64,000 nt of DNA from Escherichia coli (GTDB lineage Bacteria; Pseudomonadota; Gammaproteobacteria; Enterobacterales; Enterobacteriaceae), in NCBI RefSeq assembly GCF_001677475.2, contig NZ_CP015229.1; one strand, given 5' to 3'. The translations under genes and the position numbers were made by a program. The notes below the pieces were generated by a model that worked only from the letters and a program-made list of their open reading frames with translations, searched no databases and was not told where the DNA came from. Positions 13,137 through 19,484 of this stretch are shown one piece after another; the stretch's first letter is position 1, and the number at the start of each line of letters is the position of its first letter.

Positions 13137-13143
13137 CGTCAAC

Positions 13144-13671
13144 TTATTGATAAGTAAACGTAAACTGCACAACAGTATGGAATTCACCTGCCGTGACCGT
13201 ACCGGTAGGTGTATACATCCGTGCAGCAAGTGGGAAGGTCGCTTTTCTACTGGCCTGGTCGACGTTTACCGTCATTTTACCATTCGGGCTAATTTCCGTT
13301 ATGTGGTCATCCGTCATAATCTGCAGCGCCATCCCGGTGGCATCCCCAAGTGTATTCGCGAACTTCGTCTGGTCAACAAGATCGCTTTCCCCGGTAAACA
13401 ACGCTGTAACACTGCTTGTTGATGCAGGGCAAGAAGATAAATTCAGACTAAAGTTCTGCCACTCACTGGTATGGCCGACCGTGTCGTAATTAACGGCTCG
13501 CGCCTGCTCAAACCTGACAGTTTGATCCTTCGTTTGTGTGTCTATGACACATGCTGATGCTACCACCGTGCCATTAATGTTAATATCAGCCGCTTGGGCA
13601 GAGTGAAATGCACATAAAGGCCAGAGCGTTACCAGTAAGGTAAAAATTGTGGCACTTCGTTGAGTAATCAT
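13144..13671 (-). CDS. Fimbrial minor subunit (type 1 pilin fold)
   Basis: 175 aa. It has a signal peptide (...CAFHSAQA), the conserved Cys pair, and the C-terminal beta-strand motif FTFTYQ. Confidence 0.8.
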   Translation of the reverse strand: MITQRSATIFTLLVTLWPLCAFHSAQAADININGTVVASACVIDTQTKDQTVRFEQARAVNYDTVGHTSEWQNFSLNLSSCPASTSSVTALFTGESDLVDQTKFANTLGDATGMALQIMTDDHITEISPNGKMTVNVDQASRKATFPLAARMYTPTGTVTAGEFHTVVQFTFTYQ

Positions 13672-13685
13672 GGCGCTAGCACCTG

Positions 13686-14210
13686 TTACTGATAAGTAAA
13701 TGTTGCCTGAACCAGGCCGGTGATTGAACCAGGCATCACATTTCCTTTCGATACAGCCCGCGTACGAAGCTGAAGGTCATAGGCGTGAGAACCAGGAATA
13801 GGGGTATTATTGATTGATGAACCATTACCCAACGTTGTAGAACCATCCTGCGTAGTGAGCTCAAGAGAGAGGTTAGTTGCTGAACCAGTATTGGCGTAGT
13901 TTGTGGCAATATCACCGTCCGGCGTACCAGAGAAAGCGACGCTAAAGCTGGAGGTTGAGAGTGGGCAATTGGTTAATTGCAAAGAGAAGTCTTTCCAGGT
14001 GGATGCGCTTCCCGCAGCCGAAAGAGAATCCGCCTGAATATTATCGCCAATATTTACATTCACGGCACTATTCCCACCATTAACGACGCACGGAGATGCC
14101 AGTACTAATCCATTAATATTGATATCTACCGCATTAACGGAGGAAGCCCCCAGAAGACTGCTGGCGATAACAAATATTATAAACTTACGCTTCCATATTA
14201 TATTCATCAT
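13686..14210 (-). CDS. Fimbrial minor subunit
   Basis: 174 aa with a signal peptide (...SSVNA), an N-terminal VDININGLV motif paralogous to the neighbouring subunit, and the C-terminus ATFTYQ. Confidence 0.8.
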   Translation of the reverse strand: MMNIIWKRKFIIFVIASSLLGASSVNAVDININGLVLASPCVVNGGNSAVNVNIGDNIQADSLSAAGSASTWKDFSLQLTNCPLSTSSFSVAFSGTPDGDIATNYANTGSATNLSLELTTQDGSTTLGNGSSINNTPIPGSHAYDLQLRTRAVSKGNVMPGSITGLVQATFTYQ

Positions 14211-14216
14211 TTTTCC

Positions 14217-15212
14217 TTAATTATATTGTACAGTAAATTGCAATGCGGATTTTACCTCGCCGGTGGTTATGTTATTAACATCGTCAATGTAATAAGCTAC
14301 TTTATATTCGGGTATTGTATAATCACCTGAGCCGATATAATTCAATGCAAAGTTATTGTTAAACTGATCGAATCCGCTTCCATCGGGGTTTTGAAATTGC
14401 ACATATACGCCTTGCGCATAACCGGTTCCGGTCTCACCGTTCATCACGCCATCCACCGAGCCGTGAGTTCCGTATAAGGCGCTAAATTTGTAAGAGATAC
14501 CCGTAATTGCGCCCGGACAATTTGTTAATGTTATTGTAGGTATTGGCGTAGCCAGTTGTGCCCCACTAACTGCATTACCGCCATAAAGTGTTGTAAGGTT
14601 CACTTCTTTTGGAGCATTTATTATGCATGGCGTCATGGTAGGCTGCGAAGAAACTCCTGAGCGTGCAAGAAATGATTTATCCGAATAAGTGCTTCCCGGC
14701 GGGTTGTGATAATTTAATGTGACGTCAGGAACAGTGACAAGAGGTCCTGGCGGTATCTGCTCTGTAAGACGAACTAATTCATACTTGATGTGTAGGTAAC
14801 CACTCTTGCTTAAACCTTCCGGGAAAGTCAGCGTGTGAGGTGCTGCTTTCGCCAAATTTGGTGTGGTATCTGTTGGGGTTGAAAAATTGAGTTGATATGC
14901 AATGCCAATACCTGGATTGCTAGTTTGATATATGGTTGCTCCGTCGCCCGTTGTTCCGACCACCGTCCCATTTACTGTAAGATCGGCATATGCACTGCCA
15001 GAACCTCCGGACGCGATATTGATCCAATAAAATTTATTCCAGTCATCAAACCAGGTTGTTCCACCTACACTCGTTGGTATGCTCCACGTTGAAAAATCAT
15101 GAGGGTAAGTGACTACCTGTGCAGTATCAGTCTGAAATTGCGATGCTGTTGTTGTTAACGGCAGTGATGCAATGCCTGAGATAAGAAAGATGATTACCCT
15201 TTGTTTATTCAT
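14217..15212 (-). CDS. Putative two-domain fimbrial tip adhesin
   Basis: I start at MNKQRVIIFLISG (331 aa), which has an SD GAGGAA and lies downstream of the usher stop. The size and position after the usher fit an adhesin. The C-terminal half is pilin-like (ends LQFTVQYN). The N-terminal 170 aa is an unrelated domain. Confidence 0.7.
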   Translation of the reverse strand: MNKQRVIIFLISGIASLPLTTTASQFQTDTAQVVTYPHDFSTWSIPTSVGGTTWFDDWNKFYWINIASGGSGSAYADLTVNGTVVGTTGDGATIYQTSNPGIGIAYQLNFSTPTDTTPNLAKAAPHTLTFPEGLSKSGYLHIKYELVRLTEQIPPGPLVTVPDVTLNYHNPPGSTYSDKSFLARSGVSSQPTMTPCIINAPKEVNLTTLYGGNAVSGAQLATPIPTITLTNCPGAITGISYKFSALYGTHGSVDGVMNGETGTGYAQGVYVQFQNPDGSGFDQFNNNFALNYIGSGDYTIPEYKVAYYIDDVNNITTGEVKSALQFTVQYN

Positions 15213-17814: not shown

Positions 17815-17843
17815 TACACATCCTTATGCAGTTAAATGGCGTC

Positions 17844-18521
17844 TTACAAAGAAGCGTTGTGTACGTCGCCTGCTGCACCGTAATCACTGATGATTGTCCA
17901 GCTTACATTTCCTGTTGTGTTGGCTGGAATTTGAAATGTCGCACTACTCATAGGAGCAACATATGTGGCATCAGGTAATGCTTTTCCGCCAATCTTGACC
18001 TGACTGAAGTTCATATAGTAAGCAGTTGGGTTGGTGACAGTGATTTGCTGTCCGCTACGTCGCCAGGTCAAATTTTTCACGACTTGTTCTGGTAATGTGG
18101 ACGAAATCTCATGTGGTCGATAAATCAATTTAATTCGCGTTTTAATGGCAATTTGCAAGGTGTTGACATTTTCCTGCTTTTCAGTTGCAGGTATCGTTTT
18201 AATATTCATCCAGTACATCGTTTCGCGATCTGTCGGCAGATTGCCGCCAGCGCGAATAATGCGCAACGCATTTTCTTCAGTGGCGCCCAGGCGGAACAGA
18301 GGGGGGGTAATAATAAAAGGGGCTTTGGCGTTGGTTTGCGGATCTCCATCGACCCATGATTGAATAAGGTAGGAGGATTTATCCGGATTTTTCAGGTGCA
18401 GAGACGTTTCTTTTTTATCGCCATTATAAATAACTCGTGTTCCTCCAACAATGACACCCGCCTGTGCAACAGAGTTGGATAATAACAATGCAGTAGCAAG
18501 AAAATAAGTCGATAATTTCAT
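17844..18521 (-). CDS. Periplasmic fimbrial chaperone (PapD-like)
   Basis: 225 aa with a signal peptide, GGTRVIY...YLIQSW, and NALRII motifs characteristic of PapD/FimC chaperones. Confidence 0.9.
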   Translation of the reverse strand: MKLSTYFLATALLLSNSVAQAGVIVGGTRVIYNGDKKETSLHLKNPDKSSYLIQSWVDGDPQTNAKAPFIITPPLFRLGATEENALRIIRAGGNLPTDRETMYWMNIKTIPATEKQENVNTLQIAIKTRIKLIYRPHEISSTLPEQVVKNLTWRRSGQQITVTNPTAYYMNFSQVKIGGKALPDATYVAPMSSATFQIPANTTGNVSWTIISDYGAAGDVHNASL

Positions 18522-18595
18522 CTCAAAAACCTTTAAAAGGTAAAACCGAGTAACTCGGTTTTACCTGACGTAATTATATTAAAATCAGGCGTATC

Positions 18596-19129
18596 TTAGT
18601 TATACGCTAACGTAAAGTTCACAGTACCATTTGCACTACCAACCGCTATGGTATCTTCTGTAGCGATATAACGTGCAAAGAAGTCCAGGTTAGTGTCGCC
18701 AGTGCTATTGAGAGCCGTGCTATCAGATTCAGTACCGAGAGGCAGCACACTACCGGAAGAATTCATGAGCTGAATTGCAACACCTTTTGCTACACCGGTT
18801 GTACCGTAATCAGTAACTTGTAAAGCATCCTGATTGATCTGATCCGGAGTACCATCGTATTTAACAGCAACATTTTTGAGCTCATTCGGGCAATTTTTTA
18901 ATACCAGTGTAAATTTGGTATTTGCAGCAGTAGTCCCAGCCGTAGCGTTAAAAGCTGTTTTAGCAATTGTGCCTAATTTCACTGTCATTGGAGATGACAG
19001 CGTACTGTTAACTTCACAGCCTGATTCAATGATATCTCCAATAAAATTTATTTTACCATCATCTGCAGAGGCGACAGAGCTAAGACCAGCGGTTGTTACT
19101 AAAACCAGAGCGGCTAGTTTGAATTTCAT
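18596..19129 (-). CDS. Major fimbrial subunit (FimA-like)
   Basis: 177 aa. It has the signal peptide MKFKLAALVLVTTAGLSSVASA, the Cys pair (C...NC), and the C-terminus NFTLAYN. It is the first gene of the operon. Confidence 0.85.
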   Translation of the reverse strand: MKFKLAALVLVTTAGLSSVASADDGKINFIGDIIESGCEVNSTLSSPMTVKLGTIAKTAFNATAGTTAANTKFTLVLKNCPNELKNVAVKYDGTPDQINQDALQVTDYGTTGVAKGVAIQLMNSSGSVLPLGTESDSTALNSTGDTNLDFFARYIATEDTIAVGSANGTVNFTLAYN

Positions 19130-19484
19130 TTACATTATCCTTGAGATTGCAGCAAATATGCTTACTTTGACAGTACTAAGGCACTGCCATCACTCCAGTG
19201 AATTTTAAATTCCTCAGGAAAAAATATAATATTAAAGCACGAAACGTTAAACACCTTATTTTTACTTAAATATGTTTTTAGGCATACTTAATTGATTCGT
19301 ATTGCGTATGATTGGTGGTGAAGTTTGTGAGGATTGCTGGGGGGGTGTACAATCATATTGATGATTTAAATGTGTGCTGTTGTATAAATATCTTTGGGCA
19401 ATCAAAAAGAGGCCAGTGAACAGATAAATTTGAACATAGAAGCTAAAATAATTTACTGTATTTCTTTGTTTATTGGGGAAGTGA

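Follow-up and report, generated by a model that had tools for sequence, protein, structure and literature searches.

A complete type-1-like chaperone-usher operon between fabF and pabC in an Escherichia coli lineage, probably received from Escherichia ruysiae by homologous recombination

How does an Escherichia coli strain come to carry a fimbrial operon between fabF and pabC, two genes that lie only 119 base pairs (bp) apart in ordinary E. coli, and is the operon maintained there? The question is raised by a stretch of 64,000 nucleotides (nt) of contig NZ_CP015229.1 (assembly GCF_001677475.2), referred to as the window, in which 6,399 bp separate the fabF stop (13085) from the pabC start (19485). 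A preliminary description of the window had placed a six-gene chaperone-usher fimbrial operon on the minus strand of this gap, which it put at about 6.3 kilobases (kb). The distance agrees with our measurement, and all six open reading frames (ORFs) were found where it had located them, each intact within the window. The operon is real and rare in E. coli, and it is not a new kind of system. With a probability of roughly 85%, we read it as a complete, selectively maintained chaperone-usher operon of the gamma-1 (type-1-like) group, the Escherichia counterpart of the Salmonella sdd/sdf operons, which was recently received from E. ruysiae by homologous recombination and would be assembled by the mechanism set out below. 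The six genes and their two neighbours, with product lengths in amino acids (aa), are arranged as follows:

11844-13085, plus strand: fabF, left neighbour
13144-13671, minus strand: minor pilin 2, FimG/FimF-like, 175 aa, Pfam Fimbrial domain
13686-14210, minus strand: minor pilin 1, FimG-like, 174 aa (173 aa from the second Met, as chosen by gene callers), FimG match
14217-15212, minus strand: putative two-domain tip adhesin, 331 aa, without Pfam match, assigned from a structure model
15241-17814, minus strand: outer-membrane usher, FimD-like, 857 aa, PapC_N, Usher and PapC_C domains
17844-18521, minus strand: periplasmic PapD-like chaperone, FimC-like, 225 aa, PapD_N and PapD_C domains
18596-19129, minus strand: major pilin, FimA-like, first gene of the operon, 177 aa, Pfam Fimbrial domain (E = 5.9e-19)
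19485-20294, plus strand: pabC, right neighbour

The genes are separated by 6-74 nt, and all six starts are preceded by purine-rich sequence, with an AAGG/GAGG core in 5/6 and only CAGG for minor pilin 2. Together, the products comprise the set of classical chaperone-usher fimbriae, namely a three-domain usher, a two-domain PapD-like chaperone, pilins and a two-domain tip adhesin without a donor strand. The three usher domains were detected at E = 4.7e-40 (PapC_N), 5.1e-198 (Usher) and 7.6e-21 (PapC_C) in Pfam. Among solved structures, the usher matched FimD over its full length at 669 bits and PapC at 258 bits. Its best NCBIfam models were LpfC, FimD and three provisional, unnamed PRK models that are tied to no operon (742-874 bits, all under cut-off), followed by a sixth model that is also unnamed (PRK15223, 735 bits); all remaining models scored 477 bits or less. 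The closest solved relative of the chaperone was FimC (E = 5e-48; PapD, 2.6e-23). In the alignment with FimC the motifs GxTRVIY and RIKLxYRP are retained, which we take to carry Arg8 and Lys112 of FimC, the subunit-anchoring pair. Judged from sequence, usher and chaperone are FimD/FimC-like and would probably fall into the gamma-1 group, which in the Nuccio-Baumler usher phylogeny includes FimD, LpfC, BcfC, SthB and StiC.

The three pilins each showed a Fimbrial domain or a FimG match, as expected for pilins of classical chaperone-usher fimbriae, and their C-termini read ...YN or ...YQ. The major pilin remained under every NCBIfam equivalog cut-off. Minor pilin 1 had no Pfam match and reached 108 bits with the NCBIfam FimG model (cut-off 220); its alignment with FimG from the PDB (E = 1.8e-23) spans the N-terminal extension. 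Minor pilin 2 scored 109 bits with FimG and 70 bits with FimF, and shares about 34% identity with minor pilin 1 (tblastn).

Since the NCBIfam equivalog cut-offs were missed for Fim, Lpf and all other models scored, the operon belongs to none of the types modelled there. In terms of solved structures, usher, chaperone and minor pilins are closest to FimD, FimC and FimG of type 1 fimbriae (fimAICDFGH), and the same assembly logic of tip adhesin, adaptors and rod can be expected. However, the window proteins fall short of the type 1 cut-offs (FimD 742/975, FimC 183/327, FimA 72/140, FimG 108/220), the adhesin gene directly follows the usher gene, whereas it comes last in type 1 operons, there is neither fimB/fimE nor an invertible promoter element, and the tip domain is not FimH-like. 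Long polar fimbriae (lpfABCDE) are encoded at another chromosomal site; here, the LpfC score was 853 against a cut-off of 1271, the LpfB score 190 against 360, and the identity to LpfD 8%. The Pap-type phase-variable operons differ by their PapI/PapB regulators and paired upstream GATC sites, which the window operon lacks.

The longest ORF of the adhesin would encode 346 aa and overlap the end of the usher gene. We placed the start at 331 aa because 29 aligned homologues and the gene predictions made for other assemblies agree on it; an exact-match look-up with the 346-aa ORF returned no match, since the real product has 331 aa. The protein consists of a signal peptide, a receptor-binding domain (residues ~23-188) and a pilin domain (~189-331) with invariant Cys196/Cys232. 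No Pfam domain was matched, and the sole match by sequence in the PDB was Abp2D (E = 0.017). In the predicted structure, the fold of the tip domain resembles the receptor-binding domains of GafD/F17G, UclD, AtfE, MrkD, LpfD, Abp1D/2D and CupB6. The corresponding Foldseek matches were weak (MrkD1P, E = 1.2e-4; Abp2D, 2.1e-4; top template-modelling (TM) score 0.51, for F17fG), and that to FimH was marginal (E = 0.024, TM 0.35). The preliminary description had seen nothing in this domain that could be related to FimH or PapG, which stands at the level of sequence, whereas structural relatives such as GafD/F17G, UclD and MrkD are recognisable. From the domains of F17G/GafD, UclD/UcaD, AtfE, MrkD and Abp1D/Abp2D it is set apart by an identity of 9-18%, as a separate sequence family; for the folds of the GafD/F17G, UclD, MrkD and Abp type, identity was 10-16%. 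Among 1.84 billion representative proteins, a profile of the tip domain recovered no more than 20 clusters, indicating a small private sequence family, and this domain is the fastest-evolving part of the operon. With neither a solved structure nor a known ligand in its family, it is a well-defined subject for glycan arrays and structure determination, which could also inform on Salmonella Sdd/Sdf.

We searched 5,426 complete E. coli genomes and 72,556 plasmids, with one genome per species for the wider scan. The operon stretch had no megablast match in the complete E. coli genomes, and 5,420/5,426 showed the uninterrupted 119-bp fabF-pabC junction, confirming that ordinary E. coli lacks the operon. 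Divergent copies at other places in the species were considered and rejected, as a search in distant mode gave patches of at most 8% of the query, lying in unrelated usher genes. One exception at the junction was an IS110-family transposase in the fabF-pabC intergenic region of E. coli strain C5 (NZ_CP010122.1, 2717-3721).

Outside the complete genomes, a 22.5-kb stretch of the window was found in three draft assemblies at 99.8-100% identity. The exact sequence of the major pilin occurs in 222 public contigs and that of the adhesin in 43; exact usher, pilin and adhesin are recorded under the generic name "fimbrial protein [Escherichia coli]", for example as ANO88407-ANO88410 on a contig of 5.50 Mb. 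The operon also occurs in a second lineage of E. coli, represented by GCA_012368875.2 (L025) and SRR28286138 (L026), with flanks that are 98.3-99.2% identical to E. coli and an island allele 94.5% identical to that of the window; this allele may have been imported separately or may be a long-standing resident. The predicted pabC gene of L026 is shortened. Two further carriers recorded as "E. coli", SRR14944431 (L023) and GCA_045001205.1 (L024), look like mislabelled E. ruysiae, judging from flanks that share 99.4-99.8% identity with that species and 93-95% with E. coli.

The E. ruysiae representative contains the same operon between the same two genes, with an adhesin that is 99% identical. 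While the island is 99.3% identical to this genome, the flanks are only 90-95% identical to it and clearly belong to E. coli (99.2-99.3% for the fab cluster, 99.0% for window positions 1-9700 and 98.4% for 22000-46000, each against the best complete genome). Nucleotide homology to E. coli breaks off at 13076, 9 bases short of the fabF stop, and returns at about 19722-19808, inside pabC. Compared to E. ruysiae in bins of 300 bp, the region from about 12900 to 19800 mostly showed 99.0-100% identity (two bins at 97-98%), against 82-95% outside. Sites that distinguish the two species are of E. coli type up to 12731, mixed at 12752-12959, of E. ruysiae type at 12998-19898 (206/208 sites), mixed again at 19898-20284 and of E. 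coli type from about 20383. The E. ruysiae-type tract measures about 7.2 kb; it takes in the final ~90-330 nt of fabF and, on the other side, ~415-800 nt from the start of pabC. Its edges lie in the following stretches:

12752-13085, plus strand: left edge of the imported tract, within fabF
19485-20383, plus strand: right edge of the imported tract, within pabC

The simplest reading of these sequence comparisons is that the native allele was recently replaced through homologous recombination, the crossovers lying within fabF and pabC and the donor being E. ruysiae or a very close relative. Synonymous divergence (dS) from E. ruysiae across the operon genes is only 0.006-0.024. The direction of transfer would be from E. 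ruysiae to E. coli, because the imported 5' part of pabC is unlike pabC in all 5,424 E. coli genomes matched. The preliminary description had spoken of an operon inserted between fabF and pabC. Its position is indeed there, but foreign DNA was not simply inserted, since the tract replaces parts of both flanking genes and the fimbrial site itself is old, being found in at least eight genera.

A classical mobile genomic island, introduced by site-specific or transposase-mediated insertion, might be suspected from the absence of the operon from nearly all E. coli and from its base composition: as had been noted beforehand, the island is richer in AT than the fab flanks, with a guanine-plus-cytosine (GC) content of 44.1% against 51.8% and 51.0%. 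This explanation is already refuted by the structure of the boundaries, which lie inside two conserved genes and show the graded mosaic of sites typical of homologous recombination. The window contains no tRNA, no integrase or transposase was found near the site and no direct or boundary repeats at the edges, and the island encodes the six fimbrial genes only. A plasmid origin was likewise rejected, as no megablast match was obtained in the plasmid collection.

Vertical inheritance from the Escherichia ancestor, with retention only in this E. coli lineage and no import, would agree with the ancestral nature of the fabF-pabC site across genera. It could also draw on the allele of L025 and L026, which could be an old E. 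coli resident because its divergence of 5.5% approximates the genome distance between E. coli and E. ruysiae. For the lineage of the window, vertical inheritance is nevertheless very improbable and close to refuted: divergence from E. ruysiae is unequal between the island and the adjoining DNA, which is 90-95% identical to E. ruysiae but 98-99% to E. coli, and the E. ruysiae-type sites run on into fabF and pabC and then end abruptly. Import by homologous recombination therefore remains the preferred reading, and the locus represents a clean, datable case of an adhesin operon passing from a "cryptic clade" species, E. ruysiae, to E. coli.

The same six genes were found between pabC and fabF in E. 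ruysiae, Escherichia marmotae, Salmonella enterica subsp. arizonae, S. enterica subsp. enterica, Pseudocitrobacter, Pluralibacter, two Kluyvera, Klebsiella oxytoca, Citrobacter braakii and a metagenome contig. Apart from E. ruysiae, these loci share 66-74% identity with the window usher, 40-74% with its adhesin and 50-65% with its major pilin. E. marmotae (L020/L021, 6701-12654) has its own six-gene operon with a 342-aa adhesin, alike in site, layout and genus. However, its usher is only 71% and its adhesin 46-48% identical to the E. ruysiae type, in spite of 98-100% identity between the two species in the flanking FabD/G/F, YceG and Tmk. The E. marmotae version is as distant from that of E. 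ruysiae as the version of any other genus; it is a different one that diverged anciently.

This divergence extends into pabC. In residues 1-115 of PabC, E. coli and E. ruysiae share 55% identity and E. ruysiae and E. marmotae 68%, while residues 116-269 are 90-97% identical across Escherichia; the corresponding values for S. enterica and S. arizonae are 63% and 92%. In this N-terminal third (window 19485-19830; loci L001, L006, L020, L022 and L007), divergence within a genus reaches the level between genera and follows the neighbouring fimbrial version, or its absence. These comparisons indicate that fimbrial genes have long occupied the fabF-pabC gap in the Enterobacteriaceae, in deeply diverged operon versions, and that ordinary E. 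coli has the empty state. A broader proposal, to which we would give slightly less than even odds, is that the gap acts as a hypervariable fimbrial "cassette" site across the family. Deep versions, as different within Escherichia or Salmonella as between genera, would have been kept for long and swapped between species via the conserved flanks, in the manner of O-antigen or flagellin loci, dragging the first third of pabC along. The empty E. coli state would then be one version among others, and each private tip domain might have its own receptor specificity.

Comparing our results to previous studies, we found that the Salmonella operons sddABCDEF (SARI_01795 onward, in arizonae) and sdfABCDEF have been named as six-gene clusters (Yue 2012, PMC3373541). 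In Table S2 of that study both are flanked by aminodeoxychorismate lyase (pabC) and 3-oxoacyl-ACP synthase II (fabF); sdfD has 332 aa, and sdd and sdf are described to replace each other at "analogous genomic loci". Their presence in the Salmonella ancestor has been inferred (Cheng & Wiedmann 2022, PMC9238391). The link came from this supplementary table; a search for fabF, pabC and fimbrial in the main texts of papers found nothing. Like the window operon, sdd/sdf have the order pilin-chaperone-usher-adhesin-pilin-pilin between pabC and fabF, an adhesin of about 332 aa as the fourth gene and a usher of the gamma group. The two Salmonella loci found at the site here (L007, arizonae; L022, enterica) share the gene layout of the window. 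Compared to these site loci, rather than to the reference sdd/sdf (SddC, SARI_01797; SdfC, S. Schwarzengrund CVM19633), the window proteins are 68-71% (usher; 71% for S. arizonae and 70% for S. enterica in the direct usher comparison), 48-52% (adhesin) and 50-64% (pilins) identical. By position and sequence, the window operon can be regarded as an orthologue of sdd/sdf that is not of the same allele type.

The preliminary description had allowed that the locus might turn out to be an already characterised E. coli fimbrial operon. This is not the case, because the names sdd and sdf rest on genome comparison only; we found no functional study of Sdd/Sdf in the literature, and the Escherichia version is without a name. 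A catalogue of 38 E. coli chaperone-usher types, defined by usher tree and locus, ties none of them to the fabF-pabC site (Wurpel 2013). The operon therefore extends the fimbrial repertoire of E. coli by a type that is missing from this catalogue and from all 5,426 complete genomes, while the understanding of chaperone-usher systems is unchanged by it. Of note are the clean transfer between species, the deep divergence of versions at one site, which includes part of pabC, and the ligand-orphan tip domain. The "archaic" cluster EFER_1138/SARI_01025, without an E. coli remnant according to Wurpel 2013, was considered as a candidate and rejected: it is assigned to the sigma clade in the supplement, and SARI_01025 is sdcD in Yue 2012, a different operon.

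We next consider expression, for which three non-coding features are relevant:

13103-13136, between fabF and minor pilin 2: putative bidirectional intrinsic-terminator hairpin, A5-GCGAAACAC-loop-GTGTTTCGC-T7
18538-18566, minus strand: inverted repeat in the pilin-chaperone intergenic gap, a hairpin that may act as an attenuator or stabilise the mRNA
19130-19484, minus strand: upstream non-coding region, 355 bp, 32.7% GC

The upstream region was thus correctly described as AT-rich, and the lack of a linked recombinase or PapB/PapI-type regulator could be confirmed: upstream ORFs are all short or overlap pabC, and the region has no credible ORF and none for a small regulator or recombinase. No GATC site occurs in 19130-19484, so that the paired sites of Pap-like switches are missing, and neither flanking inverted repeats nor an invertible (fimS-like) element was found there. 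A sigma-70-like site (-35 TTAACG at 19250-19245, -10 TATATT at 19228-19223) is a candidate promoter. Over its proximal ~180 bp, the region hardly varies between alleles with an overall difference of 6%. A C7 tract at about 19339-19345 was evaluated as a slipped-strand switch and rejected; it is not conserved as such, since its length is equal in all close alleles and it is missing in the 94% allele.

The 74-nt gap between pilin and chaperone genes contains a perfect 14-nt inverted repeat (a 13-bp stem as folded) followed by UUUU, with a centroid energy of -17.2 kcal/mol and z = -2.8 for the whole 86-nt stretch. The hairpin in the 58-nt convergent gap between fabF and minor pilin 2 has a 14-bp stem free of mismatches, bordered by a run of A at one end and of T at the other (-22.5 kcal/mol, z = -6.6), and looks like a bidirectional terminator. 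It had been proposed beforehand that the operon shares the fabF terminator, which is right as to its form; the sequence is that of E. ruysiae and differs from the usual E. coli fabF terminator. In Rfam, the only match was a sub-threshold one to RmaA (30.7 against 57 bits), located on this terminator hairpin.

From homology and established knowledge of the pathway, the following course of assembly can be proposed. All six proteins would be exported by Sec, and the FimC-like chaperone would hold the subunits by donor-strand complementation. The FimD-like usher would begin with the 331-aa adhesin, which could sit only at the tip because it is without an N-terminal donor strand, and would then add, by donor-strand exchange, the two FimG/FimF-like adaptors followed by the major pilin as a long rod. 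The N-terminal beta-sandwich domain of the adhesin may bind a host or surface ligand. At the level of the message, the strong hairpin 3' of the pilin gene probably raises pilin transcript over that of the downstream genes. Because the upstream region is so rich in AT and lacks a dedicated regulator, H-NS-type silencing with expression under particular conditions only is a reasonable guess. The E. coli lineage would have acquired this E. ruysiae version at an old fimbrial site by the crossovers in fabF and pabC.

Compared to the allele that is 6% diverged, the ratio of nonsynonymous to synonymous substitutions (dN/dS) was 0.07-0.18 per gene, with 0.18 for the adhesin as a whole and 0.22 for its tip domain. 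All six genes are under purifying selection, and these values of 0.07-0.22 argue that they are kept by selection. Positive selection on the adhesin was considered and rejected: it evolves faster than the other genes, yet both of its ratios are well below 1.

An intact but silent passenger, recombined in, repressed, of no use to the strain and heading for decay, is the rival explanation that bears on maintenance. The low GC content of the promoter region and the lack of a dedicated activator are in line with it, as are the split usher or truncated pilin of other carriers, and the import is so recent that purifying selection within E. coli has had little time. Under laboratory conditions, many chaperone-usher operons of E. 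coli are reportedly cryptic (Korea 2010, as cited in PMC3559732). Nevertheless, we regard this explanation as unlikely: none of the six genes is disrupted in four independent assemblies that represent the lineage, the dN/dS values across alleles are low, and the operon has been retained at the site in many genera.

Several points weigh against our reading of a maintained gamma-1 operon received from E. ruysiae. Decay is seen in other carriers, with a usher split into 568 and 189 aa in L026 and a minor pilin truncated to 125 aa in L024. Apart from the two mislabelled assemblies, a single E. ruysiae genome represents the donor, so another close relative could have served. As to the clade, the main text of Yue 2012 (PMC3373541) puts sdd/sdf in gamma-4, and Cheng & Wiedmann 2022 (PMC9238391) place SddC/SdfC in gamma-1. 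The ushers of S. arizonae (L007) and S. enterica subsp. enterica (L022) at the site are 72% identical, whereas 93% is given in the literature for SddC and SdfC, which suggests that the site holds more types than the two named. The tip domain shares 9-18% identity with any solved adhesin at TM scores of at most 0.51, a resemblance too distant to transfer binding-site residues or a receptor. Finally, promoter-like sites in the upstream region number 11, compared to 14.1 expected in shuffled sequences, and the sole promoter call, no better than chance, is a candidate only.

Regarding the rest of the window, identity over the 24 kb from 22000 to 46000 reaches only 98.4% in the best-matching complete E. 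coli genome, and the source lineage seems to be missing from the searched collection of complete genomes. The carrier lineage appears to have a chromosome of 5.5 Mb and a lambdoid prophage nearby; given these, a new colonisation factor could bear on its host range. Positions 46000-64000 contain potABCD followed by this prophage, with integrase, exonuclease and helix-turn-helix genes, a stretch that is covered to at least 80% by only 1/5,426 complete E. coli genomes (strain 08-00022), at 96.3% identity.

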